DNA of 64,000 nucleotides from Candidatus Omnitrophota bacterium (GCA_021108075.1 JAIORP010000168.1:2649-66648); one strand, 5' to 3'. Counted from the first letter of the stretch, positions 42,952 to 64,000 are shown. The notes: a model not told the origin generated them from the sequence alone. Numbers and translations are program-made.

Positions 42952-44691
42952 TCACGGGTTAACAGTAAATTTATCAAAAATTTTTTGAAGTTGTGGAGAA
43001 GGCATGACGCAATTTTCTTTTTCCTCTATTTGATGGATCGAAGCCGGTTCATTTATGTAGACCTCAACCCATACACCATCTTTTTGAAAAACATCGACGC
43101 GTTTAAAATGATGATAAAACAGGTCCCTGACTGTCTTCGTCTCCTGGTCAAGCAACCCATCCTTGATCCACATGGAATAGACGAGCCATAACCGGTTAAA
43201 AGACAGGTCTTCAATATTGAACTCACTTAAAAGCCGATCATTCTTAAAAGGCGTGAATTTATAAAACTGTAATGGATCGCTTTCATCCACAATATCATAT
43301 TCGTTTTCCATGCCCAGGAAAAAAATTTCAAAGGCCGAAATCCCATACGGAAAAAACACCTTGTAAAAAGATTCTGGCAGTTTGTCCCGGTATTTGGCAT
43401 AATGCCGATAGACTTGCTGACGGGTTAAAACATAAGAATGAAAATTTGCGGCAACAACGATATCGCCCTCCTTCATATTCAACGGCAGGGGATCTAATAT
43501 CTCAGAGGCCTGTCTTTTCGGGGGTGTTCCCATAAAAACAGCCTGCAAGTATCCACGCGGATACGCGTAACCCTTATAATAGTTTGTCAAAGCCGGCAGC
43601 TGAAAAGCGCAGAAAATAATGACGCAGATGACTTTATAATGTTTTTTCTTTAACGCGTCGATACCGCACGCCATCAATAAATAATAGAACGGCGAGAAAA
43701 TGATCAATTGCCGATGGACAAAAACAGGTAAAATCCATCTCGAAAGATAAAACATGATGATCACCGGACAAAACAAAAAAGCACTCAATGAAACCGACTG
43801 GACCTTATCCACCTTAAATAAAGCGAAAATGCCATAACAGGCTATGGAAAAAAAGAACAAAAAACTTAATAAAAAATGAAAATAATTCGACCCCGAATAA
43901 CCGACACCGAAAATCATCCAGGCAAAAAGAAAGACTTCATATCTGGGTGAAATCAGCCAAAAATTCTTTCTGACCATGTCCATGTGCTCAGAAAACAATG
44001 CTTTAAGGGCAAAAATAACGATTAAAATAATTACAATCGACAGAATCCACTTGAATAATTTTGAACGGTGTTTTTGCGTTAATAAAGGTATGAAAGAAAA
44101 CAGCAGCAAAAAAACAGCAAAATAATTCGACAGCACAGCCATGAAACCCATGACCGTGAACATCACCCAATGCCCCCGTCGATCCGTTTGAAAAACCTTC
44201 AGATAAAAATAAACCCACACCAAACAGACAAAAACCGCCATAGCGTACCCGCGCGCTTCCTGCGCGTACCAGAGATGGAATGGATTAACCGCCATGATAA
44301 GAAGGGTGTAGAACCCCACACGGGGATTCACAAAGTGATGGGCGATATACCACAAAACAATCAGGGCCATCATACTGAAAAAGACAGACATCAGCCGCAG
44401 CGACATACCATCGCCGATCAGCACACTGTAGAGATAGACAAGAATATTATAAATCGGGGAATGCGGGTCGCGCATCAACATATCCGTGAAGACTTCAATC
44501 GCAGGGGTGTCCGTCAATTCAGCAGTGATTTGAATGCTCTTCGCGCCATACAGATCATTACCGATCTCATCATGCCACAAATCAAAAAAATCATAATGGT
44601 ACAGACGAAGCCCTAAAGCAAGAATAAATAAGAATAGACAGAGAATTTTACGGATAGGTAATTTATTGGATAAAACTATGAAATCAAACAT
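42952..44691 (-). CDS. GT-C fold membrane glycosyltransferase (GT39/GT83, PMT/ArnT-like)
   Basis: 579 aa with about 12 TM helices. The acidic first-loop motif FFDLWHDEIGNDLYGAK matches the DE motif of PMT/ArnT. It has a C-terminal soluble domain. Confidence 0.5.
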   Translation of the reverse strand: MFDFIVLSNKLPIRKILCLFLFILALGLRLYHYDFFDLWHDEIGNDLYGAKSIQITAELTDTPAIEVFTDMLMRDPHSPIYNILVYLYSVLIGDGMSLRLMSVFFSMMALIVLWYIAHHFVNPRVGFYTLLIMAVNPFHLWYAQEARGYAMAVFVCLVWVYFYLKVFQTDRRGHWVMFTVMGFMAVLSNYFAVFLLLFSFIPLLTQKHRSKLFKWILSIVIILIVIFALKALFSEHMDMVRKNFWLISPRYEVFLFAWMIFGVGYSGSNYFHFLLSFLFFFSIACYGIFALFKVDKVQSVSLSAFLFCPVIIMFYLSRWILPVFVHRQLIIFSPFYYLLMACGIDALKKKHYKVICVIIFCAFQLPALTNYYKGYAYPRGYLQAVFMGTPPKRQASEILDPLPLNMKEGDIVVAANFHSYVLTRQQVYRHYAKYRDKLPESFYKVFFPYGISAFEIFFLGMENEYDIVDESDPLQFYKFTPFKNDRLLSEFNIEDLSFNRLWLVYSMWIKDGLLDQETKTVRDLFYHHFKRVDVFQKDGVWVEVYINEPASIHQIEEKENCVMPSPQLQKIFDKFTVNP

Positions 44692-44786
44692 TAAAAAGTC
44701 TTAATCTATATAAGGTAGAAATCTATTTCACCATTAATAACATCAACAATGCAAAATTGAAGCCACCATTGAATGTCCGACGTCCA

Positions 44787-45038
44787 TTAACCGTTACGGG
44801 CACACAAGGCAACATATCTTGCAGGTAAATAGGGCCTGGTTGATCCTGTCTGGGCTTGATTAATCCACACAAAACCACCACCCCCGCAACCACATACACC
44901 TGACTGGCAATTGCGCAAACGAAATGTCGCGCATTGGGCTTCCGCGTAACGCGTTCCGACACGCAATCCGATAACGGAAATAAGCACAAAAGCACACAAA
45001 AAAATTAATAATTTTATCGTTGTCTTAATTCTTTCCAT
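44787..45038 (-). CDS. Small secreted Cys-rich peptide, paralog 3 (83 aa from the ATG)
   Basis: Signal peptide then AEA-QC. The mature peptide of about 48 aa has 5 Cys, a CGC motif and a C-terminal TRPYLPARYVALC. It has a strong Shine-Dalgarno (GGGAGG). It is in tandem with two paralogs. Confidence 0.6.
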   Translation of the reverse strand: MERIKTTIKLLIFLCAFVLISVIGLRVGTRYAEAQCATFRLRNCQSGVCGCGGGGFVWINQAQTGSTRPYLPARYVALCARNG

Positions 45039-45071
45039 CAAACATCCTCCCTTTAAAAAAACATCAAAAAC

Positions 45072-45320
45072 TTAGCTCCCCAGGCAAAGGGTCATATATC
45101 TTGCCGGAACATAAGGGCGACCAGAACCGCATTGTGTCGTTGAAACAGGATTGTAACCAGCAGGACAACCGCATCCACTACTATTGCAGGTTACAACCGT
45201 ATAGCGGACACACGCTTGGGCTTCCGCGCGCGGCACATACAATTTGACACCCACTATGATAGACACCGTTAAAACACTTAAAAAAATTGTTATTAAAAAA
45301 ATATAACTTATTTTCTTCAT
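45072..45320 (-). CDS. Small secreted Cys-rich peptide, paralog 2 (82 aa)
   Basis: Signal peptide then AEAQA-C. The mature peptide has 6 Cys, CGCPAGY and a C-terminal GRPYVPARYMTLC. It has a Shine-Dalgarno GGGAGG. Confidence 0.6.
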   Translation of the reverse strand: MKKISYIFLITIFLSVLTVSIIVGVKLYVPRAEAQACVRYTVVTCNSSGCGCPAGYNPVSTTQCGSGRPYVPARYMTLCLGS

Positions 45321-45429
45321 ACTCTGTCCTCCCTAAAGGATACAAACAGATTATCTGAATTTCAAAAAATACGCAAATTCAAAAGACCGCTTCATAAAAC
45401 CTGTCACATTCGTGATCTTAAGCAAGCAC

Positions 45430-45678
45430 CTATTGCGCGCAAATAGCCGTATACCAATAAGTCGCGTAACTAGGTGAATAAGGGTTTCCCGCCGGTTGAT
45501 TGCGCACCCAACCTGCCGGGCACGGATCCCCCCACTGGCCCGCGGTAGTAGATGAATAAATACGCCAACTGACACATTGCGCTTGTGCTGTTGGTGGTTC
45601 AACACGCAGATTGGAAATACAGAATACGGTCAAAGTGATCAGTATACAAATAATGACTTGAAGTATTCTTTTAAACAT
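45430..45678 (-). CDS. Small secreted Cys-rich peptide, paralog 1 (82 aa)
   Basis: Signal peptide then AQA-QC. The mature peptide has 3 Cys, CPAGW, NPYSPSYATYWYTAIC, and is Ser/Thr/Tyr/Trp-rich. It has a Shine-Dalgarno AGGAGG. An AT-rich putative promoter region lies upstream. Confidence 0.6.
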   Translation of the reverse strand: MFKRILQVIICILITLTVFCISNLRVEPPTAQAQCVSWRIYSSTTAGQWGDPCPAGWVRNQPAGNPYSPSYATYWYTAICAQ

Positions 45679-45873
45679 GCATCTGCCTCCTTTTATGACA
45701 TATACAAAGATAAGTGCCGATGTTATTGATAATATTTTTATATTAAATCTTCATTAATAAGAATAATAGATGCTTTTAAAATAATACCATAAAATAAATA
45801 AAATGCAAAGCCTTTCGTCTTTTTCCTACCCGGCAACGAGACAAAAAAAATTACCTTCCCTATCAGATCAATG

Positions 45874-45978
45874 ATACCAATCCCATTAAATAATGACCAA
45901 AACCGATTCTGCTTTTCTCGACGCTTTAGCGAGAATGTCAGGATTGAAATAAAAACAATTCATTAATGGATTTAGTAT
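45874..45978 (+). repeat. MITE-like element, long form, copy F (about 100 bp of element plus TA flanks)
   Basis: ATACCAATCCCATTAAATAATGACCAAAACCGATTCTGCTTTTCTCGACGCTTTAGCGAGAATGTCAGGATTGAAATAAAAACAATTCATTAATGGATTTAGTAT. The long form equals the short form plus an approximately 22-bp nested hairpin (TTCTCG...CGAGAA) in the central loop. Confidence 0.8.
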
Positions 45979-46125
45979 GGCGATAAAGTAATATCTATCA
46001 AAAATTTTAAAATTATTATTGAACCGGACGGCGAAAAGCTCCCTATCGGTTCGTGTCATCGGTCATCGCGTTCTTTTTATTTCATCCCGGTCCAATAGAA
46101 GTAAAAACCTCAGGGTCTATACCGC

Positions 46126-47331
46126 TCAACGAGACTGGATCGCTTGAAAAACATCATCCGGTCTTATTTGTTGAATACAAATATTATTCTTGCAGGTGGA
46201 AACGCGGTGGTTAAAAACAGACAAACAGGGTGAACAGGGCCATTGGGAATAAAAAATGTGAATATGCTCCCCTAATGGCGCGAAAATCCCGGGACTCTCC
46301 GGTCCGAACAAAACATATTGTTTGATCGACGTCATCGAGGCTAAATGCGCCAGGCCGCAATCATTGGCAATCAAGGCATCCGCGATATCAAACAGGGCAA
46401 ACAACTCGAATATTTGTGTCTGCCCGGTTAAGTCCAGACAAACGTCCTTTCCCAAAGCCTGACAAAATTGCCGGGCTTTCGTTTTGCAATTTTCTGTGCC
46501 GATCAGGAGAACAAAGCAATCCTTTTGAGCAACGATCTTTTTGCCTAATGTGACAAAAGACTCGAACGGCCACTCCCTTAAAGCAAGCACCCCATCACCT
46601 AAATTCATCAGCATCATTCTTGATGCCGCAGGCACGCCCATGCGGATCAATTTTTCCCGCATCGCATCAATGGCTGGCTGTTGGACTTGATATTGAGGAC
46701 GGTCTTGATCATCCATACACTGTCTTTCAATTAAGTCCGGAGTCACCTTGGCCACTGACGCGACCACCTGGCTAAAAGCCAAAAACATCTCACTGATATG
46801 TTTTTGGGGGTTATAAATAACTTTATGCGTCACTAAATCGCCGCGGTACAAACCTTCGAAGCTAAACCGGTCAAACCCAATCCTTTTTGGCGCGGAACTC
46901 AAATAAGACAGAATAGCGGTAAAACGGGAAAAAAATTCTAAATCTAAGACGACATCCACTTTTTCCTTTCTCATGCCGGCAATGACCGCAAACACATCAT
47001 GAACGAACTGTGAGAATGTCGTATCGCGAATCGTGTATATCTTTTTTAATGGGATGATATCCAGGACATCAAATATTTGACGGTTGCATTCAAATGTCAC
47101 GAAAAAAAACTGAGCCTGCGGATAAGCCGCCTGCATCCGCCTGATAAGGGGATAAGACAAAACAATCCCTCCCATTTCCGATGGCTTTAAAAAAAGGATC
47201 TTTCGCGGATTCGGTGCGGTATCCTTTTTTGACCTAAAAAGACCCGTAAGCTTATTAAAAACTGTCAGGAAGAAACACAGCGGAATGCCAACCCAAAAAT
47301 CTATAAATCGCATAAAATTTAATGTCATCAT
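46126..47331 (-). CDS. Glycosyltransferase family 9 (heptosyltransferase-like)
   Basis: 401 aa. The C-terminal motif NDCGLAHLASMTSIKQYVLFGPESP resembles the GT9 consensus (NDSGPMHLAAA...LFGPT). Confidence 0.65.
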   Translation of the reverse strand: MMTLNFMRFIDFWVGIPLCFFLTVFNKLTGLFRSKKDTAPNPRKILFLKPSEMGGIVLSYPLIRRMQAAYPQAQFFFVTFECNRQIFDVLDIIPLKKIYTIRDTTFSQFVHDVFAVIAGMRKEKVDVVLDLEFFSRFTAILSYLSSAPKRIGFDRFSFEGLYRGDLVTHKVIYNPQKHISEMFLAFSQVVASVAKVTPDLIERQCMDDQDRPQYQVQQPAIDAMREKLIRMGVPAASRMMLMNLGDGVLALREWPFESFVTLGKKIVAQKDCFVLLIGTENCKTKARQFCQALGKDVCLDLTGQTQIFELFALFDIADALIANDCGLAHLASMTSIKQYVLFGPESPGIFAPLGEHIHIFYSQWPCSPCLSVFNHRVSTCKNNICIQQIRPDDVFQAIQSR

Positions 47332-47477
47332 ACTTAAAAATCCAGAGGTCGCTGTTTTAAAGGTTTACAACACCCGTATACTATCGCGATAAATATTGGT
47401 TTATATAATTTTTTAGAATTATTATTAATCCTGAGGTATAAAAGTCAAGTTGTAAATTCACGAACAAAAATCCAGAC

Positions 47478-49151: not shown

Positions 49152-49181
49152 ATAACATCTATTAATAATTGAAAAATTTCA

Positions 49182-49997
49182 TCATGTCGTTTTAGAAAGA
49201 CACTGTTTCTTAAGGTATTGCATTCCGTCATTAACCTTTTCACTGTAAAACCGCATCATTTCTTGTTCATATTCATCATAAGAATGATCATACAAATAAT
49301 ACGCCTTAACAAAAATGTTAAAAAGGATCAGTTGAAAACAACGGCCCTGCATCTGGTGGTCCATCCTTGATCCTTTAACATCTTTGGACGGCATCAGTCC
49401 CAATTCGTAAAGCCTGGAACCCGCCGTGTTACTGTTGCTGTCCTCTTCACCGGTATCTGTAGCCGGGATCATTTTATCAAGACGCAGGCGCTCAACAAAC
49501 CCCGTCTCCTTATATCCGTCGAAGTCGAAAACAGGATTAGAATACATCACCCCAAACTCGGCGTAAAGGTCTTTGATCATCTCAACACCCCGTTTCATTT
49601 GCGCGGGAAAAATATTCATCCCCTGGTTCGCCCCATCGCAAACATGCGCCACCTGATTGTCCAGGCAGTACAGGATCGTCTGCATATGCATGGCTAACTT
49701 GCATAAACCACAATTTGACAGAAGAAAAAATCCGAATTTACGCCAATAATAGAAATAGCGCGAGTAAAACACAAACCTGGTGATGGCATCGACGTCGATG
49801 ATCGCATGGCTGAACTTTTCCTGTCCATATTTTTCCTGCAGTTTATGAACATTGAATGTTGAGTTCTTCACGCGAAAGAAGCCAAACCGCCTGTAAGTGA
49901 CCAGATGGACCCTGGAGAATTGCTGAGAAACTAAAGCCGCCGCAAGAGTGGAATCCGTTCCACCGGAGAACAAAACGACAATTTCATTTTTATTCAA
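49182..49997 (-). CDS. PP-loop ATP pyrophosphatase (QueC-like, N-type ATP PPase superfamily)
   Basis: 271 aa. It has the SGGxDS motif (VVLFSGGTDSTLAA) and a Cys cluster NCGLCKL. Confidence 0.55.
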   Translation of the reverse strand: MNKNEIVVLFSGGTDSTLAAALVSQQFSRVHLVTYRRFGFFRVKNSTFNVHKLQEKYGQEKFSHAIIDVDAITRFVFYSRYFYYWRKFGFFLLSNCGLCKLAMHMQTILYCLDNQVAHVCDGANQGMNIFPAQMKRGVEMIKDLYAEFGVMYSNPVFDFDGYKETGFVERLRLDKMIPATDTGEEDSNSNTAGSRLYELGLMPSKDVKGSRMDHQMQGRCFQLILFNIFVKAYYLYDHSYDEYEQEMMRFYSEKVNDGMQYLKKQCLSKTT

Positions 49998-50178
49998 CCG
50001 GCTTCTCCTTTTTAACAGCTTTCCTTAACTGCCCGACGATAAACTTCAACAGCGAAAAATACATAAAATAAAGTCCTTGAACGATCCAACCGATGAATTC
50101 CGTGTAAAGGCACCGAAGTTTATACGGCAATACCATGGCTACGCTGCAAATAATACATGCGAAAAATTTTTTTAACAT
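49990..50178 (-). CDS. Small hydrophobic protein, translationally coupled between the rSAM and PP-loop genes
   Basis: 62 aa with two predicted TM segments. It overlaps the downstream gene by 8 bp and starts 4 bp after the upstream stop. Confidence 0.3.
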   Translation of the reverse strand: MLKKFFACIICSVAMVLPYKLRCLYTEFIGWIVQGLYFMYFSLLKFIVGQLRKAVKKEKPVE

Positions 50179-50181
50179 TCC

Positions 50182-51633
50182 TCAACCCTGTTCTTTCTTG
50201 AGTTGTAAAAACAGATATCCCTGCAGCATCAAACTGATGGCCTGAATATAATTCTTCAAAAAACGCCCCTTCGACGGGTATTTCTTCAAACATTTTAAAA
50301 AGCGTCCCCCGTTCAAATAAAAACGCTGTTGGGCCATCAACATCAGATGGTTTAACCGGCCAGCTGACACGTCGCTGTGCGAGCCTTTTGACGAATAATA
50401 GCTGACATCCTTAAATTCAAAATCAATTTTCCTGTCATCACTCAGGTTTTGGCTCTTTGACTGATAAATCTTAAGGATATCATCATATGCCGTGAACTTA
50501 AAAAATGAAGCGGTATCCAATTCTGAATGAACCGCGAAATCAATTGTTTTCAGCATCTCCTCTTCTGTTTCCGATGGAAAACCCAGCATGAAATAACCGC
50601 CGGTTATGATTCCGGATTGTGATGTCTTAAAAATAATATCACGCGCGGCTGATAAATCTAAATTTTTATTAATCTCTTTCTGTAAACGCCCGACAGCCGT
50701 CTCAATACCGTAAACAAGCTTGTATGTGCCGGCCAGTTTCAACAATTGAATCAACTCTTCGTCCATTTTATCAACGCGCAATCCATGGGGAAAGGAAAGG
50801 CTAACATTTAAGTTCGCATCAATAATCCTCTGACATATTTCTTTCGCGCGTTGCATGTCAAAATTAAAAACCGCGTCAAAAACGTGAAATTCACGCACAG
50901 CATACTTTTCTTTAAGGTTGACCATCTCAGCTAAAACATCGTCTGGTTCCCGCGCGAAGAAACGGTTCGAGTAATTCTCCCGGCAATATGTGCATTGATA
51001 CGGACAGCCTCTGGAGGTCATAATCGGCAGGTAATACGCCCTTTTCAACATGCCGTTCCAATTCGCGTAATGAGAATAGCTTTTGGCATCGATGAGGTCC
51101 CAGGCCAACGGAGAAATTTTTGTTACGGAAAAACCCGCAGGACGAGGATCCATCGAATTCCAACAGACAGTCCCTTTGTCTCTGTAAACGAGTCCGGCGA
51201 TTCGCTCATATCCGGATTGCCTTTCAATCGCTTTAATCACCAGGGGGATAATTAAATCCAGCTCTCCCGTAATGGCATAGTTGATGTGCGGATCCATCAG
51301 TAAATAACGGCCGGCAATCATGGCCAACTGTCCGGATACGATGACAACCGCGTTTTTGTTGCGCGTCTTCATCGTCGCGGCCCATTCATGCACCAGGCCC
51401 GCTTCCCAGGCCAACGCGTGCAAACAGAGATAATCCGGATCGATATTGTCGAGGTGCTGTTCAACATCATCACCGGTCAACGAATCAATCCCCATATCGA
51501 TAATATGAACATTTAATGCCAGAGGATCATCCTCGTATAGCGCGGAAACAGCATAAAGGATATCGACCGGAGGCACAGGCCCCCCTAAACCAACAGGCTT
51601 AAATGGCCGAATGAAAAGAATTGTTTTAGACAT
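50182..51633 (-). CDS. B12-binding domain radical SAM protein (class B)
   Basis: 483 aa. It has an N-terminal Rossmann-like B12-binding region and the CxxxCxxC motif (SRGCPYQCTYCRE). Confidence 0.85.
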   Translation of the reverse strand: MSKTILFIRPFKPVGLGGPVPPVDILYAVSALYEDDPLALNVHIIDMGIDSLTGDDVEQHLDNIDPDYLCLHALAWEAGLVHEWAATMKTRNKNAVVIVSGQLAMIAGRYLLMDPHINYAITGELDLIIPLVIKAIERQSGYERIAGLVYRDKGTVCWNSMDPRPAGFSVTKISPLAWDLIDAKSYSHYANWNGMLKRAYYLPIMTSRGCPYQCTYCRENYSNRFFAREPDDVLAEMVNLKEKYAVREFHVFDAVFNFDMQRAKEICQRIIDANLNVSLSFPHGLRVDKMDEELIQLLKLAGTYKLVYGIETAVGRLQKEINKNLDLSAARDIIFKTSQSGIITGGYFMLGFPSETEEEMLKTIDFAVHSELDTASFFKFTAYDDILKIYQSKSQNLSDDRKIDFEFKDVSYYSSKGSHSDVSAGRLNHLMLMAQQRFYLNGGRFLKCLKKYPSKGRFLKNYIQAISLMLQGYLFLQLKKEQG

Positions 51634-51641
51634 AACATCTT

Positions 51642-52952
51642 TTAGTTTTGAACACGAATCATATCATTCCGGACCACACGCTCATAAATCTTTTGGGCGA
51701 TCAAATTATGCCCCACAGCGTTGGGATGAATCGTATCACCATCCGGGTCCAGAAACAAATATTGCGCATTATTCATTTGATTAAATTTTTTAAACTCTTC
51801 AACAATATCAACAACGACAATCTTCCTGTCATCAGCTACCTTTTGCATTATATCATTATAAACCCGGGATAAAGAAGCACACTCATGCAGTTCCATCTCA
51901 ACACTTTTCTTATAGAAAGCGTGACTGCGGTCGGACTGCCGCAGGACCTCATGATATTGCCCCAGATAATAATATGTTTCACTCGAGTGGGGATGATAAG
52001 CCAATGCTTGATTCAGCATTTGAATCGCCTTTTGATAGTCTTCTTTCCCGGCAGCCTTCAGGGCGTGCTGAATGAATTGATCCGACTGAGATCGGTTCTT
52101 TTCAGAAACAGGATCAACGGACGGCAAATTAACAGGCATCTTAATAAAAACAATTTGGATCCCTTCCTGGTGGGCGATACGCACAAAATCCAGCAGGTTC
52201 TTTGCATACGATTGATCTGAGACCCTCCGGTTTGTCATATAATAACGTTGCCCGGTTTTTCCAAAATATTGCATGGCGGTCGATGAGGATCGAACCATCA
52301 AGCGTTTTAATAACGCGACAAAGTGACTGCGGCTCAGAATGTTATCAACGGCAATCAATAGGGGTGAAATGGGTTCCAATTCCATATCACTCTTTCCATT
52401 GCTTCGAAAGAAGCGATGCTTATCGACATCATTAATGACATAGGAAACCGTTATCAAGTCCGGCTTTAATGATAATATGGATTTCTTTAACAACTTCAAA
52501 CCTTGAAAGGAACTGTAACCAATGGACCCCGCGTTCATCACTTCCACGCGCTGAGCCTTTGTTTGACCGGATTGAAGCAGATCCTGCAAGCGATGGGCAT
52601 ATGTTTGTTCTTGACCGACGCCCCATCCGAATGTCGGTGACGCCCCCAGGCAAACAATACGGAAGACATCTTGCCCTTTGCCAGTCACCGGGCCGGACCG
52701 GAAGCCGAATTGATTTGTCTTGATCAACTTCCCGGAAAAGGATGTTGACAAATGAACGCGTTGCTTCCAGAACAAATCGAAATCTTGTTCTAAAACAGCC
52801 AGAATGTGTTCCATCGGTGTCTTATGACGCGTGAGAAGATATCCCAGCCCTTCAAAAAACAGTAAAATAAACAAAAAAAAGACAGCCGCAATGAATGGGC
52901 CTTTATATTTGTCCATAAAGATGGAACCTCTCGCGTATCCCAAAATAATCAA
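51642..52952 (-). CDS. SGNH/GDSL-type hydrolase with an N-terminal TM anchor and TPR-like segment
   Basis: 436 aa. It has a GDS-like block IVCLGASPTFGWG and a C-terminal DPDGDTIHPNAVGH (the SGNH D-x-x-H block). Confidence 0.55.
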   Translation of the reverse strand: MIILGYARGSIFMDKYKGPFIAAVFFLFILLFFEGLGYLLTRHKTPMEHILAVLEQDFDLFWKQRVHLSTSFSGKLIKTNQFGFRSGPVTGKGQDVFRIVCLGASPTFGWGVGQEQTYAHRLQDLLQSGQTKAQRVEVMNAGSIGYSSFQGLKLLKKSILSLKPDLITVSYVINDVDKHRFFRSNGKSDMELEPISPLLIAVDNILSRSHFVALLKRLMVRSSSTAMQYFGKTGQRYYMTNRRVSDQSYAKNLLDFVRIAHQEGIQIVFIKMPVNLPSVDPVSEKNRSQSDQFIQHALKAAGKEDYQKAIQMLNQALAYHPHSSETYYYLGQYHEVLRQSDRSHAFYKKSVEMELHECASLSRVYNDIMQKVADDRKIVVVDIVEEFKKFNQMNNAQYLFLDPDGDTIHPNAVGHNLIAQKIYERVVRNDMIRVQN

Positions 52953-53012
52953 TCTATGAATGCAAGATCACACCTGATATTGTCGGAATTAGTCAGGATG
53001 AAATAAACCTCT

Positions 53013-53222
53013 TTAAAATAAAGCATAAATCGCCGGCAGTATCGACTGATTTCCTGTGAGGCTAATAAACAAACCTAAGAAGGCTAAAACGAAAAGAAAC
53101 GGCAATAACCACCATTTCTTATTTTCCTTTATCAAAATGTACAGTTCCATTAATAATTCTATATTTGATTCAAAACGTGATTTCTTAGGCTTACCCTTTT
53201 TTGTTCCACTATATTTGTTCAT
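53013..53222 (-). CDS. DUF5989-like small membrane protein
   Basis: 69 aa. The core ELYILIKENKKWWLLPFLFVLAFLGLFISLTG..AIYALF is recalled from memory, unchecked, to resemble DUF5989 proteins. The true start may be an internal Met. Confidence 0.4.
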   Translation of the reverse strand: MNKYSGTKKGKPKKSRFESNIELLMELYILIKENKKWWLLPFLFVLAFLGLFISLTGNQSILPAIYALF

Positions 53223-53448
53223 CTGATGCTCTTTTGTTCTCGTAAGACATGAAATGATTTTACCACTGATATATTTTAATCCTCAATGAGAATAAATAAA
53301 ATAAAAACTTTCTGTTCCTATCCCGCACGAGCCAAAAAAATGATGAGCACGCGCAAAGGCTGATTAACACCACACAAGTATAACATCCATCCCGTTTTAT
53401 ATCTTGAATAATACCAAATCCCCTCTCTGTTGGCACATTCGGACTGAA

Positions 53449-54765
53449 CTAGGCGACGTGCACCTTTTTTTCACCGAACAAATAATAACGGATTTTTTTC
53501 ACGAAACGGCCCCGGTTGTGCCGCAGGACCAGGCGCCGTAAAATAAAACGGAAAACGGAAAACTTAAAAATCAACCGCACATTAGCCCACATCTGCCACC
53601 TCTTATGCTTAAGAACCTCTTCATCCGATGGCAAAGCCTTGCCGGAAGACTGTGACATCAACGGCTTAAAAATATTATAATGAATAAAGTCAAAATCAAA
53701 CCGGCGCGATTGACGGATGTCGGCCTTCACCTCGGACAGTGTCTGCCCCGGCAAACCAAATATCAGGCTGCAACAAATTTCGACCCCGAGGTCTTTGCAC
53801 CGTTGCACGACATCAGCGACCGTCTGAGAAGATTGCCTGCGGCGGTTTCTTTGCGTGAGCGTATCATGAAACGATTCAACACCTAATGATATGCTGTAAC
53901 AACCGGCAGACGCCATCGCATCGATCACATTCAGGTCTGTCATTTCACTTAGAGGGATCACGCCCGCGCATTGCCACTCAATAGTGTCCGGACGCTCCCC
54001 GATAAGGGCACACAGGCCTTTGATTCTTTTAATATCATGACCGATAAAGTTCTTATCCTCAACGTGAAACTCCCTGATGCCATATTTGTCAACCAGATGC
54101 GCCATTTCATCAACAATGTTTTGTGGTGACCGGACACGATAAGGCTGGCCGATAACAGATTCAGCGCAGTAGGAACATTTGTGCACACAACCACGGCTGG
54201 TTACTATCTGAGCGTAAATCTTTTGACGCGTGAGCATACCATTTGCATACTGCCCGACAGAAAAAGAGTCCCGGTCCGGAAACGGTAAATCATCAAGGTT
54301 ATTGATCAACGCGAGCTCCCCCGCACGCGTGCGCGTTGTTTGCCGGTTCAATACGCCTTTAATGTTATAATCACGATTTTGTGTGAGGGCCTGACATACC
54401 TCAGAAAAAGCGTACTCCGCGTCCCCTCGGATGGTCGCCTCGATCCCGGGGATCAAAGCGAACAAGTCCTTGCCGGCCAATGTTGCATACTCCCCCAGAG
54501 CGACGACACGGACAGGCTGAAGGCTTTGAATGTTCCGGCACAGGTCTGCCGTGTACGGGTTCATATCAGACGCGACATCTATCCCGACAAGATCAATGCG
54601 TTCCTCTCTCATAATGGATAAAACCATATCGGCCGGATCAAAAAACAAATCAACACCCCGGACACGCCAACCCTTTTTCTTCTGTATCGCGGCGATGGTT
54701 CCCAATGTAAACGGAAAAATTGGTTCCATGTTATGTTTAGGAATATTGATCAATAATAGATTCAT
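53449..54765 (-). CDS. B12-binding domain radical SAM protein (class B)
   Basis: 438 aa. It has a CxxxCxxC motif (SRGCVHKCSYCAE) preceded by a B12-binding-like N-terminal domain. Confidence 0.85.
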   Translation of the reverse strand: MNLLLINIPKHNMEPIFPFTLGTIAAIQKKKGWRVRGVDLFFDPADMVLSIMREERIDLVGIDVASDMNPYTADLCRNIQSLQPVRVVALGEYATLAGKDLFALIPGIEATIRGDAEYAFSEVCQALTQNRDYNIKGVLNRQTTRTRAGELALINNLDDLPFPDRDSFSVGQYANGMLTRQKIYAQIVTSRGCVHKCSYCAESVIGQPYRVRSPQNIVDEMAHLVDKYGIREFHVEDKNFIGHDIKRIKGLCALIGERPDTIEWQCAGVIPLSEMTDLNVIDAMASAGCYSISLGVESFHDTLTQRNRRRQSSQTVADVVQRCKDLGVEICCSLIFGLPGQTLSEVKADIRQSRRFDFDFIHYNIFKPLMSQSSGKALPSDEEVLKHKRWQMWANVRLIFKFSVFRFILRRLVLRHNRGRFVKKIRYYLFGEKKVHVA

Positions 54766-54792
54766 AGCGAAACAATTTATCTTTGCAGAGAG

Positions 54793-56229
54793 TCAGGACC
54801 TTTTCTTATGGAGTATTTTTTTGAAACTTGTTAATTCAAAAAACACATCCCTATTCAACAAGTAAAACAAACCATACTTGAGCAGATGATGGATAAAATA
54901 GGACAGCCGCAGATAAAAAGAGCGGTAAAACAGAACGTACATCTGTTTCGTCGTCTCCATATCCATTTGACTGAAATTGACCGGATGATCTTGATAATGA
55001 TAGGTCTCGCGTATCTTTTCCTTGAGCCGGCTATCGTCAATTTGGGCGTAATAACTGGATCCCGGATAAGCGGTAAAATAACACAACTGCAGCAAGTCCG
55101 GCCGCAGATCCCGCGACAGTTGGATATTATTCAGGACATCCTGCGCTGTCTCTCTCGGACAACCAACCTGAAACATAGCCAACGTGTCTATTTTTAAGGC
55201 CCGGGCCGATTGAAAGACTTCCAGCGCTTGCTGGACCCATATGTCCGGTCGTTTAGATTTTTTGATATGATTTAAAACCTCGACGGAGGAAGATTCTATT
55301 CCAAAACGCAATTGAATACACCCGGCCTTGCGCATAAGCTTTAAAAGATCAACAGATAGTTCGTCCACTCTTGCATGGGACGTCCATTCGATACGAATAC
55401 CCGCGCCCAAAAGAGCGTTGCAAAATGCCCGCACGTGATTGGCTAAACATGTAAAATCATCGTCCGCGATATACAGCATATTCACACCTAAAGCCTGCAA
55501 AGCCTTAATTTCTTCGATGATCAATCCCGGATTACGGCAACGGACCTGAGCCCCAAAGCTCTCGCGGGTCACCTGCGAACAAAATACGCAGGCATGTGGG
55601 CAACCCCGTGTTGTCAAGATATGCCCCCAGACAAGTTTATGATAAAAAGTTAATGGATAAAAAATCTTGTACTTCAACAGTTCCTCACGGGAATAACCTG
55701 GCGCGGGCAAAAGGTCCAGATCCGTGACCCGGGCGATGGATTGATCGGCAAAGGCCATGCTGCACAGACCGGGAACCCCGAGGGGTGTCTGCCCCTGTTC
55801 TAAGGCATCCAGAAGTTCCAGGAAGGACAACTCCGGCTCCCCTCTAATGACACAATCAACAGGAGAGTCGGCATGGATATACCGCCAAGGCTCGGCAGAA
55901 GGATCTTGACCGATGGCAACGATATATGGATTTAATTTCATTTTCATCTCACGCGCGAATGATAAAACCAAGTCCTGTTCGGTGGTCATGGCACTCATAA
56001 GAATAATATCCGGTTTCCATTTGAGCACACCGGATATCAGTGTTTCAAACGGCAAGGGAGAAATCCATGAATCAAAAAAATAAGTTTCATAGAAAATTTT
56101 GGTTTTAAGGAGGGCCTCGATATATTTGAGATAAAAAGGCACACGGATATCTCGCGTGTGGCCGGCTTCTTTAACAACAGTCGCCATCGGCCGCCATAAA
56201 AATATCCTTATTTTCTTTCTATTTTTCAT
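54793..56229 (-). CDS. B12-binding domain radical SAM protein (class B)
   Basis: 478 aa. It has a CxxxCxxC motif (TRGCPHACVFCSQ). Confidence 0.85.
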   Translation of the reverse strand: MKNRKKIRIFLWRPMATVVKEAGHTRDIRVPFYLKYIEALLKTKIFYETYFFDSWISPLPFETLISGVLKWKPDIILMSAMTTEQDLVLSFAREMKMKLNPYIVAIGQDPSAEPWRYIHADSPVDCVIRGEPELSFLELLDALEQGQTPLGVPGLCSMAFADQSIARVTDLDLLPAPGYSREELLKYKIFYPLTFYHKLVWGHILTTRGCPHACVFCSQVTRESFGAQVRCRNPGLIIEEIKALQALGVNMLYIADDDFTCLANHVRAFCNALLGAGIRIEWTSHARVDELSVDLLKLMRKAGCIQLRFGIESSSVEVLNHIKKSKRPDIWVQQALEVFQSARALKIDTLAMFQVGCPRETAQDVLNNIQLSRDLRPDLLQLCYFTAYPGSSYYAQIDDSRLKEKIRETYHYQDHPVNFSQMDMETTKQMYVLFYRSFYLRLSYFIHHLLKYGLFYLLNRDVFFELTSFKKILHKKRS

Positions 56230-56279
56230 AAATATTTCTTCCGACGATCGTCCATCATCCCGCTAAAAAACAGCACCTG

Positions 56280-57734
56280 TCACACCGAATGGTTCAAAAG
56301 CACTTCCAAGCCGGCTTTCAACATCATCTTTCTGCGATAATGGCTCTTCGCTCCGAAAAATTCCCGGATAACAAATGTGGGGCGCAGATAAAATTTGCGA
56401 ATGGCCCTGTTGCGAAACTCCCATACCTGTCTGGCTGACAATTGAGAAGATTCCCAAACCGGTTGCCCGATTGAATGATCAACTTCGATCTTCGGGTCGA
56501 AAATTTTGTTATTTTTTTCCAAGGCATCACGAAAAGATGTATCCCAAGCGGGGTTTGCGATATTAAAAGAAACATAATTCGGGTCGAGCTCAATGCAAAA
56601 ATCGATAAGCCGTTGAAGAGAAAGCTCATCCTCTCCTTGCATCCCTACGATAACATGCGCGAGCGTCCTGATGCCCAACTGTTTAGCCAGGTGAAACGCT
56701 TCTTTTGTCCTTTGCAGTGATATATTTTTGTTGTGCTTCCTTAAAATGTTTTCGCTTGCTGACTCAACACCAAACATGATGGTATGGCAACCGGATTTTT
56801 TCATCGCCTTAAGCAACGTTTCATCAGCCTTATCCGTGCGCATCTCACAACTCCAGGAAAACGGATGGCTCACTTCTTCAAATAAACGGCAAACAGCATA
56901 CGCCTGCTCACGATGTGAACCAAAACATTGATCTCGAAAAAACAATTCCCTTATACCCATCGATTTGATCGACCGCAACTCCTGCTCAATGCTTTCAATG
57001 GTCCGCAATTTAAAAGGAATTCTTTCGTAAGGACAATAGGAACAGGCGTGCATGCATCCAAACGTCGTTAGGATCGTCGTGAACGGATGACACTGAATGT
57101 GGGGCAGATGATAGCGCTTTATGGGAAAAAGATCATGACGGGGTGGCGGGTAGGAACACGCTTCGTTGACCGCAACGATTTCTTCATGCATTGATTCACG
57201 CGTCATGATATTGACAATGGAATCCGAATGAGGATTGAAAACATAACTGAGAATCCCACAATGAGAAAAATCCAAAACAATCGCATCAATACATGTATTT
57301 TCCGTTAATACCTGACGCGGATAAATTCTCGAATAATCCCCGGAAACAATGATCAACGCTGACGTCTTTTGGGACAATTTGCTCAAAAATCGCATATCGG
57401 AACGCCAATTCACAGCAGCGACCATGCAAATAATAATATCCGGACTGAAGGATTGGATTTCTTCAAGTGTTTTGTCCTCGCTAAGGGGCATCACCATCGC
57501 ATCGATGACCGACAGATCACAATCATCCTGGAGCATCCCGCTAAAGACCAGCAGGTCCTGAGGCAGCCAGAGATAATTCCCCTTGGCCAAATGGCTGCAA
57601 TAATAATCGCGAATGACCCCTTTTCTGGCAGGTGGATTCAGCAATAAAACTTTCTTTTTCATAAGCAATACCTTTACCTGTACCGATATATAACGCCTGT
57701 GAATCATCGGCTCCATCATCCACGACGCTTCCAC
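56280..57734 (-). CDS. B12-binding domain radical SAM protein (class B)
   Basis: 484 aa. It has a CxxxCxxC motif (TFGCMHACSYCPY). Confidence 0.85.
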   Translation of the reverse strand: MEASWMMEPMIHRRYISVQVKVLLMKKKVLLLNPPARKGVIRDYYCSHLAKGNYLWLPQDLLVFSGMLQDDCDLSVIDAMVMPLSEDKTLEEIQSFSPDIIICMVAAVNWRSDMRFLSKLSQKTSALIIVSGDYSRIYPRQVLTENTCIDAIVLDFSHCGILSYVFNPHSDSIVNIMTRESMHEEIVAVNEACSYPPPRHDLFPIKRYHLPHIQCHPFTTILTTFGCMHACSYCPYERIPFKLRTIESIEQELRSIKSMGIRELFFRDQCFGSHREQAYAVCRLFEEVSHPFSWSCEMRTDKADETLLKAMKKSGCHTIMFGVESASENILRKHNKNISLQRTKEAFHLAKQLGIRTLAHVIVGMQGEDELSLQRLIDFCIELDPNYVSFNIANPAWDTSFRDALEKNNKIFDPKIEVDHSIGQPVWESSQLSARQVWEFRNRAIRKFYLRPTFVIREFFGAKSHYRRKMMLKAGLEVLLNHSV

Positions 57735-57735
57735 T

Positions 57736-58926
57736 TCAGAGCAAATCTTTCAAAGCAAATCCCTGGGCTTTTTGACGAAAAGATTTTTTGGCATAATGCG
57801 CGCATTTCAACTTGATCGCGCCATGCGGGCAACTTTCATAACATCCAAAACATGATAAGCACTTCTTTATATAAATGGGTGTTTTCCCGCTTGTGATCGC
57901 ACCGGTCGGACAAATATCCGCACATTTGCGGCAGTCCCGGCATAAATCCTTTATAGCATAAGGCCGTATTAACGACGACCTTAACTTAAAAAAAATATAA
58001 TCCTTTACGATGCCAACAACGTTCCGGGAAGATAATGTCGGCAACTGAAAAGATCGACGGCCGATTTGCCCGGTGTCACCGGCCACGGAAATTTTATCCA
58101 AGTCACAGGGACCCAAACCAACATCCCGGGCGATACGCGTGATGAGAACATCTTCCGGGGCAATCCCGATCAAATCACTGCAGACAGCGTCTAAGGCCAC
58201 CAGGTTATCACTACCGGCGATAAAATGACTACGGACAACCGATCCGGAACTCGGCCCCTGACCTTCCATCGCCCAAATGGCATCCATCAAGGCAAAATCA
58301 AATGCAACAAAAACGTTTAAATCCACAATCGCCCGCGCGAGCGCATCTAATCCAGGGGCCAATAAATGCATGCGGGCTTTCAGGCATCCGGGGATCACGC
58401 CCATTTGATTTTTTAAGGCGCCGGTGTAAAGCGACAAACTGTGCGTTTTAAGTTTGGGCAATGAAATCCGATAGTCAACTTCCTGAAGAAGTTTCGGTAA
58501 ATACATTTCTTTTAAACGATGGCCGTTTATGTGTTGCTTCTTTAGCGCGCAGGCGTCAAAATTAACCCACTCCACAGCTTCTTCCCGCGCCACTTTAATG
58601 ATTCCGGCAATGTCTAAGGCTTCACGGGTGAAACCATATATGACAGATGATTCTCCGATGATCGGCCGTCCCCGCAATTTTTTTATGGCCCGCACAACTC
58701 CCCGGACAAACTCAGGATGGGTGTGACTGGCTTCGCCGGGATCTTTTGGAATGGCGATGCTCGGTTTCAATAAAACTCTTTTGTTCTTGAACGCATGTTC
58801 CAGGCCAAAAACATCAAAAATGTCCAAAACCTTTTGTTCAACATGATGATAATCATCGCAAAATTTTAAGACGACTTTTTCATTTTTCTCTGTTTTTTTG
58901 GAGTTCATATAATTTTTTGCGTTCAT
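57736..58926 (-). CDS. DUF362 domain protein fused to a C-terminal 2x[4Fe-4S] ferredoxin domain
   Basis: 396 aa. The C-terminus has two CxxCxxCxxxCP motifs (CRDCRKCADICP and CLSCFGCYESCP). It ends 1 bp before the rSAM gene. Confidence 0.65.
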   Translation of the reverse strand: MNAKNYMNSKKTEKNEKVVLKFCDDYHHVEQKVLDIFDVFGLEHAFKNKRVLLKPSIAIPKDPGEASHTHPEFVRGVVRAIKKLRGRPIIGESSVIYGFTREALDIAGIIKVAREEAVEWVNFDACALKKQHINGHRLKEMYLPKLLQEVDYRISLPKLKTHSLSLYTGALKNQMGVIPGCLKARMHLLAPGLDALARAIVDLNVFVAFDFALMDAIWAMEGQGPSSGSVVRSHFIAGSDNLVALDAVCSDLIGIAPEDVLITRIARDVGLGPCDLDKISVAGDTGQIGRRSFQLPTLSSRNVVGIVKDYIFFKLRSSLIRPYAIKDLCRDCRKCADICPTGAITSGKTPIYIKKCLSCFGCYESCPHGAIKLKCAHYAKKSFRQKAQGFALKDLL

Positions 58927-61448: not shown

Positions 61449-61591
61449 TCCGAAACAATTCTTTTTTAACATTTTCCAACCAGGGTTCATATTGCAAATA
61501 CGGCAACAGGTTCGCGTCCCGTTCACGCAGGACAACAAAACATGCCTTCCGGCATGGATTCTGGAAAAAAATCTTGCGCGGGTGCCTCATT

Positions 61592-61695
61592 ATACCAATT
61601 CCATTAAATAATGATCAAAACCAATTCTGCTTTTCTCGACGACTTAGCGAGAATATCAAAATTAAAATAGAACAATTTATTAATGGATTTGGTAT
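61592..61695 (+). repeat. MITE-like element, long form, copy H
   Basis: ATACCAATTCCATTAAATAATGATCAAAACCAATTCTGCTTTTCTCGACGACTTAGCGAGAATATCAAAATTAAAATAGAACAATTTATTAATGGATTTGGTAT. Its terminal T is the first base of the TAA stop (minus strand) of the 61695..62804 gene. Confidence 0.8.
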
Positions 61696-63753: not shown

Positions 63754-64000
63754 TTACGATTTTAAAGAAAAAACCCCCTTCAATAACCGAAAAAAGATAT
63801 CCGTATTGTGACAATAGAACGGCGCGTAACGATAAATGTGCTCCCATAAAAATCGGGGACTAAAAAATATCCGCCGGTATATCTTTACCCGCATGTCTTC
63901 GAGTTGACGGGTGCTCACAGCGCTCAAGGTCATTCGGGGAACAGTATAATGGTACATCGACAGCACTTCTTCATCTTTCAACGTGCTTTTCAATTGCTCA
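63754..64000 (-). CDS. Hypothetical protein, probably partial. The frame stays open to the window end.
   Basis: The ORF is open from 63754 to the window edge. The listed start is a TTG at 63993. I recognised no motifs. Confidence 0.25.
   Translation of the reverse strand, partial: EQLKSTLKDEEVLSMYHYTVPRMTLSAVSTRQLEDMRVKIYRRIFFSPRFLWEHIYRYAPFYCHNTDIFFRLLKGVFSLKS

Follow-up and report, generated by a model that had tools for sequence, protein, structure and literature searches.

Gene content and organization of the locus

A 64,000-nucleotide stretch of DNA from a Candidatus Omnitrophota bacterium (GCA_021108075.1, JAIORP010000168.1:2649-66648; the whole stretch is referred to here as the window, and positions are counted from its first nucleotide) contains a 16-kb block of fifteen genes at 42952-58926, all on the minus strand. 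The block encodes four radical S-adenosylmethionine (rSAM) enzymes, a DUF362 protein fused to a ferredoxin domain, a PP-loop ATPase, an SGNH-type hydrolase, two GT-C glycosyltransferases, a GT9 glycosyltransferase, a DUF5989 membrane protein, a 62-aa hydrophobic protein, and three small secreted peptides. The window comes from a 72.6-kb contig (ena:ERZ26872899 NODE_53) of a Candidatus Omnitrophica metagenome-assembled genome (MAG; NCBI tags K8S27_124xx), and the gene starts and intergenic distances given here were taken from the deposited gene calls for that contig. These independent calls coincide with the 15 minus-strand open reading frames (ORFs) listed in an earlier note on this DNA, and Pfam searches bore out the domain content given there: DUF362-ferredoxin, four rSAM, SGNH, PP-loop, GT-C, and GT9.

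The same note described the block as an island of genes separated by 0-50 bp, suggestive of one long transcription unit. From the first gene to the last, the intergenic distances are 16, 50, 27, 226, 96, 8, 3, -8, 48, 146, 447, 109, 33, and 95 nt, so the 0-50 spacing is true for part of the block only: six gaps are between 95 and 447 nt. A single unit is not supported, and because of these six gaps of at least 95 nt several transcription units are possible. Co-directionality is not distinctive either, because the minus strand of the 64-kb window carries 33 of its 35 ORFs that are 150 aa or longer. Promoter-like sites (44, versus 36.8 ± 6.7 in shuffled sequences) and terminator-like sites (22, versus 19.7 ± 5.3) were not in excess, and since these counts are the same as in the shuffles, the scan provides no evidence for an operon. 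A search of the whole window against Rfam found no riboswitch and no other RNA family. As for the island, composition gives no sign of one: the GC content of the block is 0.40-0.47, compared with approximately 0.42 elsewhere, and a horizontally acquired island was ruled out by the lack of compositional deviation.

None of the fifteen proteins scored at or above the equivalog cut-off of any characterized family in NCBIfam, and no part of the block fits a characterized pathway, in agreement with the earlier note. The most suitable reading is not one fifteen-gene pathway but a composite, made up of a conserved core, a module of peptides and GT-C glycosyltransferases, and a set of lineage-specific extras. 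The functional neighborhood runs past position 58926, with a flippase-like protein, a GT2 glycosyltransferase, and a fifth B12-binding rSAM encoded at or over the right end of the window.

A five-gene core conserved across phyla

Five genes of the block, encoding SGNH-TPR, DUF5989, rSAM-D, sp62, and the PP-loop ATPase, were largely collinear, with the same order in Omnitrophota and in related phyla. The PP-loop ATPase (49182..49997) carries an SGGTDS motif and is of the adenine nucleotide alpha-hydrolase type, YcfA-like by both profile and fold. Its gene is overlapped by 8 nt by that of sp62 (49990..50178), the 62-aa hydrophobic protein, which had no Pfam match. Residues P19, R23, G31, W32, and Q35 of sp62 are near-invariant. 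rSAM-D (50182..51633) is a class-B-like rSAM enzyme (Pfam Radical_SAM 58.4, B12-binding 24.3). The SGNH-TPR protein (51642..52916; Pfam Lipase_GDSL_2 57.6, plus tetratricopeptide repeat (TPR) families) is anchored in the membrane at its N-terminus, carries a TPR insert, and is an esterase or acyltransferase of the SGNH/GDSL type. Judged by its motifs, it carries the catalytic Ser (GxS, block I), Gly, Asn, and DxxH (block V) of the SGNH superfamily: S110, G150/G156, N179-D180, and D411-H414, in stop-to-stop ORF numbering, are kept in 52-59 of 61 family members. The DUF5989 small membrane protein (53013..53222; Pfam 54.9 bits) has the conserved motifs KWWLxP and LPxxYxxF.

The related-locus set consisted of 80 species-level genome loci that encode a homolog of the PP-loop ATPase, and the core was detected in two ways: every ORF of these loci was compared with the proteins of the window, and all ORFs were clustered de novo. 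A homolog of sp62 was encoded immediately upstream of the PP-loop gene in 70 of the 80 loci, DUF5989 was present in 57, and orthologs of SGNH-TPR scoring at least 150 bits were found in 33. In 27 loci, across phyla, an rSAM-D ortholog (300-541 bits) was encoded immediately upstream of the sp62 and PP-loop genes, and 19 loci contained a carbamoyltransferase. Neighbors of the PP-loop gene were counted in the 41 loci where 8 kb or more was available on each side of that gene. In this subset the most frequent neighbors were sp62 (35 loci), SGNH-TPR (30), DUF5989 (29), a membrane protein of 121 aa bearing a conserved CCG motif in its N-terminal part (26), a second type of SGNH-TPR protein (21), a SufS-family pyridoxal 5'-phosphate (PLP) enzyme (20), and a B12-rSAM (18). 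Carbamoyltransferases and SPASM rSAM enzymes were found in 12 loci each, and GT2 and GT9 glycosyltransferases in 7 each.

The core recurs in Omnitrophota, Elusimicrobiota, Halobacteriovorax/Bacteriovoracaceae, and Myxococcota. The 80 loci with the PP-loop gene come from Omnitrophota, Elusimicrobiota/Endomicrobiaceae, Halobacteriovorax/Bacteriovoracaceae/Bdellovibrionales, Myxococcota, and UBP9, as well as from MAGs with doubtful labels. The latter include an "archaeon" (L081), a "Gottesmanbacteria" (L019), and several labeled "Rickettsiales", "Enterobacterales", and "Planctomycetia", all with the PP-loop family; these odd labels are probably the result of mis-binning or automatic labeling. In the Halobacteriovorax and Bacteriovoracaceae loci (L007 and L027 from Halobacteriovorax marinus, and L023, L031, and L035) no rSAM of the B12 type was detected in the vicinity of the cassette. 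Instead, the H. marinus locus, which is annotated, encodes a carbamoyltransferase-SxtJ fusion followed by DUF5989, and a different, non-B12 rSAM of approximately 415 aa, with no glycosyltransferase nearby. At least 25 genomes have a core with rSAM-D and the PP-loop ATPase and no peptide of the family described below within 10 kb, and a motif search of the 80 loci for unrelated secreted Cys peptides of analogous type found none. No literature was found on the signature families of the cassette (DUF5989, DUF7411), and the core cluster is not described in an Omnitrophota genome paper.

The PP-loop ATPase is closer to YcfA than to QueC

The PP-loop family is well conserved (approximately 280 aa, 45-55% identity), and SGGTDS, CGLCK, and RCFQ were invariant in all 20 aligned homologs. 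The earlier note had called the protein a QueC-like PP-loop ATPase, of which the PP-loop part stands and the QueC part is imprecise. When a profile of 20 family members was searched against the PDB, the best match was YcfA of Erwinia amylovora (9kq6, E 2.7e-19), versus 6e-4 for QueC. An AlphaFold2 (AF2) model of the protein (predicted local distance difference test (pLDDT) 84, predicted template modeling (TM) score 0.84) gave the same result in Foldseek, with YcfA at E 6e-10 and a TM score of 0.76, and QueC at 3e-5; QueC, TtuA, LarE, and ThiI fell between 1e-5 and 1e-4. The QueC equivalog TIGR00364 scored 22 against a cut-off of 150, over the N-terminal 30 residues alone, and the Pfam QueC family 24 bits, over residues 6-74 only. 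Thus, by sequence profile and by comparison of the predicted model, the nearest solved relative is YcfA, not QueC, and the label "QueC" that this family carries in public annotation is misleading.

The three invariant Cys residues of the family recall [4Fe-4S]-dependent sulfurtransferases such as TtuA, which suggests that the enzyme may bind a similar cluster. In many relatives the PP-loop gene is followed by that for the 121-aa CCG protein and then by that for the SufS-family PLP enzyme (for example, L090:10788-12375), which scores 417 bits to the SufS model and has an RSGxHCC motif. This neighbor would fit a sulfur-insertion role for the PP-loop enzyme. The 121-aa protein, which is not assigned to any family, could relay sulfur at the membrane.

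Radical SAM enzymes and the DUF362-ferredoxin protein

The CxxxCxxC motif was present in all four rSAM enzymes of the block and in the fifth one upstream. Besides rSAM-D, the block encodes rSAM-A (56280..57719; class-B-like, 479 aa in the deposited call; Radical_SAM 79.8, B12-binding 21.8; motif CMHACSYC), rSAM-B (54793..56229; 60.9 and 34.7), and rSAM-C (53449..54765; 78.6 and 33.6). The Pfam gathering score for the B12-binding domain is 32.1, so that rSAM-B and rSAM-C are above it and rSAM-A and rSAM-D below it; on the basis of an N-terminal B12-binding-like region, all four may be of the cobalamin type. Pfam detected only B12-binding and Radical_SAM domains in them, with no SPASM or other accessory domain, though a divergent recognition domain could escape Pfam. 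Pairwise identity is 22-25%, and the enzymes are therefore distant paralogs from different subfamilies. The earlier note had placed four rSAM paralogs in a row: three are adjacent, and the fourth, rSAM-D, is split off by the DUF5989 and SGNH genes.

None of the four belongs to a characterized orthogroup. The best NCBIfam matches scored 98-141 bits against cut-offs of 481-578, and the enzymes were below the equivalog cut-offs for HpnJ, HpnR, BchE, AprD4, PhpK, BzaD, Mmp10-type enzymes, and the C-methyltransferases of peptides that are ribosomally synthesized and then modified post-translationally (RiPPs). rSAM-A was closest to HpnJ (133 versus 578) and AprD4 (123 versus 500), and rSAM-B to BchE (141 versus 481); every match of rSAM-C was far under its cut-off. 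The RiPP C-methyltransferase models scored 94 versus 282 (TIGR03975) and 92-104 bits (ApyD). The closest solved structures to rSAM-D are CysS, AprD4, and TokK, all of them weak matches.

The distribution of these enzymes also differed. rSAM-B orthologs (279-313 bits) were found beside the core in Omnitrophota loci L013, L014, L017, L018, and L090; in the related set they come from four genome loci, the same four as the orthologs of the upstream GT2. rSAM-A had only weak counterparts, in L026 (201 bits) and L067 (173 bits), and rSAM-C had no ortholog of at least 150 bits in the 80 loci. The fifth B12-binding rSAM (467 aa) has its 3' end in the window (63754..64000), a fragment that matches rSAM-B-like proteins, and the full gene is on L092, which covers the contig past the window. 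It is 34% identical to rSAM-B, and its best NCBIfam score was 148 versus 578.

The first gene of the block encodes the DUF362 protein, with a C-terminal 2x[4Fe-4S] ferredoxin domain (57736..58926; Pfam DUF362 166 bits, plus Fer4 families). Its matches to PDB sequences were confined to the ferredoxin part, and it had no ortholog of at least 100 bits in the 80 loci. DUF362 is in one Pfam clan with the N-terminal domain of LarA, DUF2088 (PMC11770544). It is possible that the DUF362-ferredoxin protein serves as an electron donor for the rSAM enzymes.

Secreted peptides encoded next to a GT-C glycosyltransferase

The three small secreted peptides reported in the earlier note were found as paralogous ORFs of 82-83 aa, each with a Shine-Dalgarno site and a signal peptide of n-h-AxA form. 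pepA (45430..45678) is predicted to be exported by the Sec system as a mature peptide of approximately 49 aa with 3 Cys, after cleavage at an AQA-QC site, and it matches the family hidden Markov model (HMM) with E 1e-26. pepB (45072..45320; mature form approximately 48 aa, 6 Cys) and pepC (44787..45038; approximately 49 aa, 5 Cys) likewise have a ribosome-binding site and a signal peptide and match the family HMM.

A word-index search with the three peptides returned only themselves, and none had a Pfam match, so there is no NHLP-type or other Pfam-detectable leader. A HMMER profile search of 1.84 billion representative proteins found 7 distant relatives of 77-88 aa. The family has a signal peptide, an invariant Ala at position -1 of the predicted signal peptidase I (SPase I) site followed by a nearly invariant Gln and an invariant Cys, a central C-[GP]-x-G, and a C-terminal L-C-x(2-4); three Cys residues are invariant. 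Paralogs occur in tandem arrays, are rapidly diverging (28-36% identity), and have hypervariable loops. The AF2 model of mature pepB is a three-stranded beta-sheet (pLDDT approximately 80-89), a fairly confident prediction of a folded mini-protein with a beta-sheet core. A fold search of the PDB with this model gave no significant match.

The gene next to the peptide array encodes GT-C2, and this arrangement is conserved. In L053, a locus from a marine Omnitrophota genome with a PP-loop protein 41% identical to that of the window, two peptides are encoded immediately upstream of a co-directional GT-C2 ortholog (313 bits, 34% identity), and they also adjoin a GT9 ortholog (418 bits) and the five-gene core. 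These peptides were missed by single-sequence phmmer (E below 1e-5) and were recovered by reading the ORFs and then with the HMM. L097, a 4.5-kb metagenome contig, encodes two peptides followed by a GT-C2 ortholog (344 bits), a GT-C1 ortholog, and a third GT-C-like protein, which also occurs in L053. In L096 two peptides are followed by the start of a GT-C2 ortholog, which is partial, and in L098 two peptides are followed by the end of the contig. Thus, wherever downstream DNA was available (the window, L053, L097, and L096), the next gene after the tandem array was a GT-C2 ortholog. A scan of metagenomes with the GT-C2 alignment found two distant loci only, both without peptides.

The peptide genes are therefore linked in other genomes, contrary to one outcome that the earlier note had allowed for. 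As for the co-occurrence of peptides and rSAM enzymes that this note raised, peptides are near rSAM-D and the PP-loop gene in both of the loci with sufficient context, the conserved linkage of the peptides is to GT-C2 and not to the rSAM enzymes, and the enzymes occur peptide-free in the at least 25 genomes noted above.

Glycosyltransferases and upstream envelope genes

GT-C1 (47478..49133) and GT-C2 (42952..44691, immediately downstream of the peptide array) are polytopic proteins that matched Pfam PMT_2 with 27.0 and 29.8, respectively, versus a threshold of 26.1. In PMT-type GT-C enzymes a catalytic acidic motif sits just after the first transmembrane helix, and YDLWxDE is conserved at this position in four GT-C2 orthologs. 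By profile match, with marginal scores, the two proteins are predicted to be GT-C transferases of the PMT_2 (GT39/GT83-like) type, and GT-C2 has the acidic motif as well. The GT-C1 ortholog in L097 follows that of GT-C2 (38% identity; 340 bits in BLASTP, 352 bits in phmmer), and no ortholog of GT-C1 was found in the 80 core loci.

Within the GT-C1 gene lies, in frame, one copy of an element resembling a miniature inverted-repeat transposable element (MITE), which accounts for approximately 34 extra residues relative to the L097 ortholog. The MITE-like element is approximately 106 nt long with terminal inverted repeats ATACCAAATCCATTAAT...ATTAATGGAATTGGTAT, and has four copies at 86-96% identity, none being expected by chance. 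They are at 45870-45954 (minus strand), 47947-48052 (plus; the copy in GT-C1), 61589-61702 (minus), and 63641-63755 (plus), all within or beside the cluster. As RNA, the element folds into a strong hairpin (-31.5 kcal/mol, z = -8.1). Another copy gives rise to a spurious 137-aa ORF at 61439-61852.

The GT9 protein (46126..47331; Pfam Glyco_transf_9 66.4) is of the heptosyltransferase family. Among the equivalogs for heptosyltransferases I, II, and III, its best score was to TIGR02195 (heptosyltransferase II; 80.6 versus 134.6), the others being lower, and its closest PDB entry was WaaF (1psw). An autotransporter (TibC-type) heptosyltransferase was rejected, as only WaaF-type structures matched. 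GT9 orthologs (378-419 bits) adjoin the core in 5 Omnitrophota genome loci.

Several envelope-related genes lie upstream of the block. The LPG_synthase_TM family flippase-like membrane protein (61695..62723, minus strand; 342 aa in the deposited call) scored 84.6 bits in Pfam. The 239-aa GT2 (62806..63525, minus strand; Pfam Glycos_transf_2 84 bits) resembles polyprenyl-phosphate sugar synthases: its three best NCBIfam matches were PgfS, PpgS, and ArnC-type, all under cut-off, and its orthologs (200-237 bits) are inside the extended cluster of L013, L014, L017, and L018. On the contig past the window (L092:12560-19483) are genes for a DegT/DnrJ/EryC1 sugar aminotransferase, which follows the fifth rSAM, and for a 587-aa polytopic membrane protein, which is also upstream and has homologs near the core in 6 other genome loci. 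Divergent from the DUF362 gene is one for a 770-aa polytopic membrane protein with many hydrophobic segments and a C-terminal soluble domain (59136..61448, plus strand). It had no Pfam or NCBIfam match and was not found in the related loci; it is possibly another GT-C-like enzyme.

Proposed function and alternatives

Interpretation of the locus starts from its domain content, the conservation and collinearity of the core, the synteny of the peptides with GT-C2, and the position of YcfA as nearest solved relative of the PP-loop ATPase, all of which were observed. The reading that we favor, tentatively and with somewhat less than even confidence, is a composite cell-envelope locus for periplasmic glycosylation with a heavily tailored sugar, in which the acceptor is probably the peptides. 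The upstream GT2 and the DegT protein would make a carrier-linked sugar, and the flippase-like protein would flip it. The probable role of the core cassette is to tailor a sugar or envelope precursor that is associated with the membrane and likely linked to polyprenyl; its soluble enzymes are coupled to tiny membrane proteins, and its SGNH enzymes are membrane-anchored. In this cassette rSAM-D would carry out radical, probably cobalamin-dependent, C-H chemistry. The PP-loop enzyme would use ATP to adenylate a carbonyl or carboxyl group, which would then be substituted with sulfur or nitrogen, and the SGNH enzyme would transfer or remove O-acyl groups on the periplasmic side. rSAM-A, -B, and -C, with the DUF362-ferredoxin protein as a possible reductant, would add lineage-specific tailoring. 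The GT-C enzymes would then move the sugar from its polyprenyl-phosphate carrier onto the exported peptides, as TfpW does for pilin subunits, and the synteny of peptides and GT-C2 is best read as following the logic of a dedicated substrate-transferase pair. We infer each of these chemical steps, and with them the sugar carrier, the acceptor, and the electron donor.

Several points weigh against this proposal. Most core-bearing loci, for example those of Halobacteriovorax, lack peptides as well as GT-C and GT9 genes. The core can thus do without them, and it may act on a general component of the envelope. The synteny of peptides and GT-C2 rests on four loci, of which two are short contigs, and in L093 one divergent peptide stands alone in an unrelated context, unlinked. 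The PMT_2 scores are barely over the threshold, GT-C1 and GT-C2 are without a sequence relative in the PDB, and the matches of GT2 and of the flippase-like protein (30.8 versus 43.2) are under the NCBIfam cut-offs. No Aminotran_5/SufS-like gene was found anywhere in the window, nor was the 121-aa protein, and both are also missing from several other loci, including L053; because these partners are absent here, the case for a sulfur-insertion step is weakened. Gaps of 226 and 447 nt divide sub-blocks of the locus. Finally, we know of no precedent for a cobalamin rSAM enzyme that tailors an envelope glycan.

The earlier note had offered two options, of which a tailored glycan or glycolipid fits better, given the polyprenyl-phosphate-type GT2, the flippase-like protein, DegT, and several GT-C-like genes around the cluster. 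Within that option the acceptor could also be lipid A, the lipopolysaccharide (LPS) core, or another envelope glycan or lipid, reached by the same polyprenyl-phosphate sugar, tailoring, and GT-C transfer, with the peptides acting as secreted effectors or GT-C partners. This account is possible though doubtful. The set of DegT, GT2, flippase-like protein, and PMT_2 GT-C parallels ArnB/ArnC/ArnEF/ArnT, the nearest relative of GT9 is the LPS heptosyltransferase WaaF, the core is widespread without peptides, and GT9 and GT2 orthologs occur in the extended core cluster of four Omnitrophota genomes without nearby peptide genes. However, tandem peptides that diverge to 28-36% identity immediately upstream of GT-C2 in four loci are the pattern of a substrate and not of chance, equivalents of ArnA and ArnD were not found, and the ArnB, ArnC, and heptosyltransferase scores are far under cut-off. 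A lipid as the tailored product, with the rSAM enzymes methylating or rearranging a hopanoid-, ether-, or ladderane-like molecule and the glycosyltransferases adding its head group, is very improbable. The best NCBIfam matches do include HpnJ, HpnR, and a ladderane-type lipid rSAM, and a cardiolipin-synthase-like PLD gene lies elsewhere in the window, but the scores are far under cut-off (133 versus 578, 76 versus 650, and 80 versus 360, respectively), no squalene/hopene cyclase or ether-lipid genes were found among the annotated ORFs of the window or in the related loci, and the synteny of peptides and GT-C2 would be left unexplained.

The other option was a RiPP- or proteusin-like pathway, in which one or more of the class-B rSAM enzymes would modify the peptides in the cytoplasm (C-methylation or Cys cross-links), with or without a thioamide made by the PP-loop enzyme, before Sec export and perhaps glycosylation. 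In the form given in the earlier note it is not supported, given the Sec signals, the predicted folded core, and the lack of a Pfam-detectable leader or SPASM domain and of a protease or transporter, and we consider it improbable. It draws on a peptide family with three invariant Cys and hypervariable loops, on the window and L053, the two loci with enough context, where peptides lie close to rSAM-D and the PP-loop gene, on the thioamide formed by the PP-loop enzyme's nearest relative, on weak matches of the rSAM enzymes to the RiPP C-methyltransferase families TIGR03975 and ApyD, and on the precedent of bufferins as precursors with Sec signals (PMC11626156). Those rSAM scores are no better than the ones for HpnJ, BchE, and AprD4, and every score falls short of its cut-off by a factor of 3-8. 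In at least 25 genomes rSAM-D and the PP-loop gene lack a peptide within 10 kb, rSAM-A, rSAM-C, and DUF362 have no orthologs near any other peptide locus, and the peptides of L097 are followed by GT-C genes only (the upstream side is beyond the contig end). No peptidase or ABC transporter is encoded at 42.9-58.9 kb, Pfam shows no SPASM domain and no NHLP-type leader, and the prediction for the mature peptide is that of a folded mini-protein.

If peptide glycosylation is correct in its full form, the locus would define a new class of glycopeptides, which seems rather unlikely as a complete package: Sec-exported mini-peptides with disulfides or Cys, made by Omnitrophota and a few unplaced lineages, surface-bound or effectors, glycosylated in the periplasm by dedicated GT-C enzymes with a sugar that several cobalamin rSAM enzymes have C-methylated or rearranged and to which a YcfA-like adenylating enzyme, which may depend on Fe-S, has added a thio or amido modification, with the cassette acting on other acceptors in predatory and ultra-small bacteria of at least four phyla. 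There is a small but appreciable chance that the product is such a class of glycopeptide or else an envelope component with a thio modification. The peptide/GT-C module predicts dedicated peptide glycosylation in Omnitrophota, a phylum represented by metagenomes only and suspected of host-dependent lifestyles, for which molecules that are secreted or on the surface are likely to be important. Should the core tailor a component of the envelope, this would be, to our knowledge, the first case of cobalamin rSAM chemistry and YcfA-type carbonyl activation at the cell surface. Because the core is present in the cultivable H. marinus, its function is directly testable.

Other genes in the window

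Immediately downstream of GT-C2 is a gene for a 1385-aa multi-PAS histidine kinase (HisKA_3/HATPase_c; 38465-42622, minus strand), and genes for PAS histidine kinases occur in L053 too, at a distance of a few kb from its cluster. Further along, at 20484-35606 on the minus strand, are genes for a GH57/DUF3536 protein, two CBM48 alpha-amylase-family enzymes, a TreS-maltokinase fusion (1116 aa), and GlgE. This alpha-glucan and trehalose run, with a PLD-type (cardiolipin-synthase-like) gene and CorA interspersed, indicates a GlgE pathway in this Omnitrophota genome.

Comparison with known systems

The enzymatic system closest to the core is that of YcfA and YcfC in 6-thioguanine biosynthesis of Erwinia amylovora. 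YcfA activates the C6 carbonyl of guanine nucleotides by adenylation and attaches cysteine to it, and the PLP enzyme YcfC cleaves the adduct to leave a thioamide (PMC12494993). Gln129 in the Cys-adduct mechanism and a tetradecameric assembly are further features of the YcfA type. The PP-loop ATPase of the core is similar in profile and fold, and in about half of the related loci it is also paired with a class-V PLP enzyme. However, identity to YcfA is only 18-19%, and the family has three invariant Cys (CGLCK...RCFQ), whereas YcfA lacks Cys where the first two align. The PLP partner in the relatives looks like a desulfurase because it keeps the SufS-type RSGxHCC motif, and its gene is not in the window. 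In YcfC, by contrast, the catalytic Cys is missing, and that enzyme works as a C-S lyase. Unlike YcfA, the PP-loop family is always tied to tiny membrane proteins. GTP is an unlikely substrate for the PP-loop enzyme.

DUF5989 offers a second comparison. Trios of the sxtI-sxtJ-sxtK type consist of a carbamoyltransferase and two small uncharacterized ORFs (PMC2885083). Core loci of Halobacteriovorax are similar in that DUF5989 follows a carbamoyltransferase-SxtJ fusion, whereas the window has DUF5989 and neither a carbamoyltransferase nor SxtJ. DUF5989 may be the SxtK family.

Bufferins are Sec-exported, Cys-containing RiPPs that are modified by MNIO enzymes (PMC11626156). Like the peptides of the window, they are small Cys-containing precursors with Sec signals encoded beside modifying enzymes, with a mature part that is predicted to fold. 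Unlike in bufferin loci, there is no MNIO/DUF692 or DUF2063 gene here, the neighbors are GT-C and class-B rSAM enzymes, and the peptide families are unrelated.

A small exported protein encoded next to its own transferase is known from type IV pili, where tfpW adjoins the pilin gene. TfpW of Pseudomonas aeruginosa, a GT-C oligosaccharyltransferase, arabinosylates the subunits of type IV pilin (bioRxiv 10.1101/2020.04.19.049825). The likeness is the gene for a small exported protein beside a dedicated GT-C transferase, an arrangement that is conserved here in four loci. The peptides, however, are not pilins: they have an SPase I site and no prepilin motif, their mature forms are approximately 45-50 aa, and they are encoded in tandem arrays of 2-3 paralogs. 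Their glycosylation is a proposal made from the genes.

At the level of the whole locus, the nearest parallels are three-component polyprenyl-phosphate systems, such as ArnB/C/E-F/T for lipid A, the Pgf system for protein glycosylation in S. mutans (PgfS), and mycobacterial PpgS with its partner transferase. As in these systems, a GT2, a flippase-like protein, a DegT protein, and a PMT_2 GT-C are encoded together here, all within 25 kb. The differences are that every match is far under the equivalog cut-off (among the Arn pathway models, ArnB scored 106 versus 631 and ArnC-type 58 versus 529, and the GT-C genes were without an NCBIfam ArnT match), that neither ArnA nor ArnD (formyltransferase/decarboxylase and deformylase) was found among the annotated genes of the window and the adjoining contig, and that the five class-B rSAM enzymes, the YcfA-like ATPase, and the SGNH enzymes interleaved here are in none of the known systems. 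Polyprenyl-phosphate periplasmic glycosylation with tailoring is thus the known element of the proposal, and the interleaved cobalamin-type rSAM enzymes, the YcfA-like ATPase cassette, and the dedicated family of secreted peptides are the new ones.

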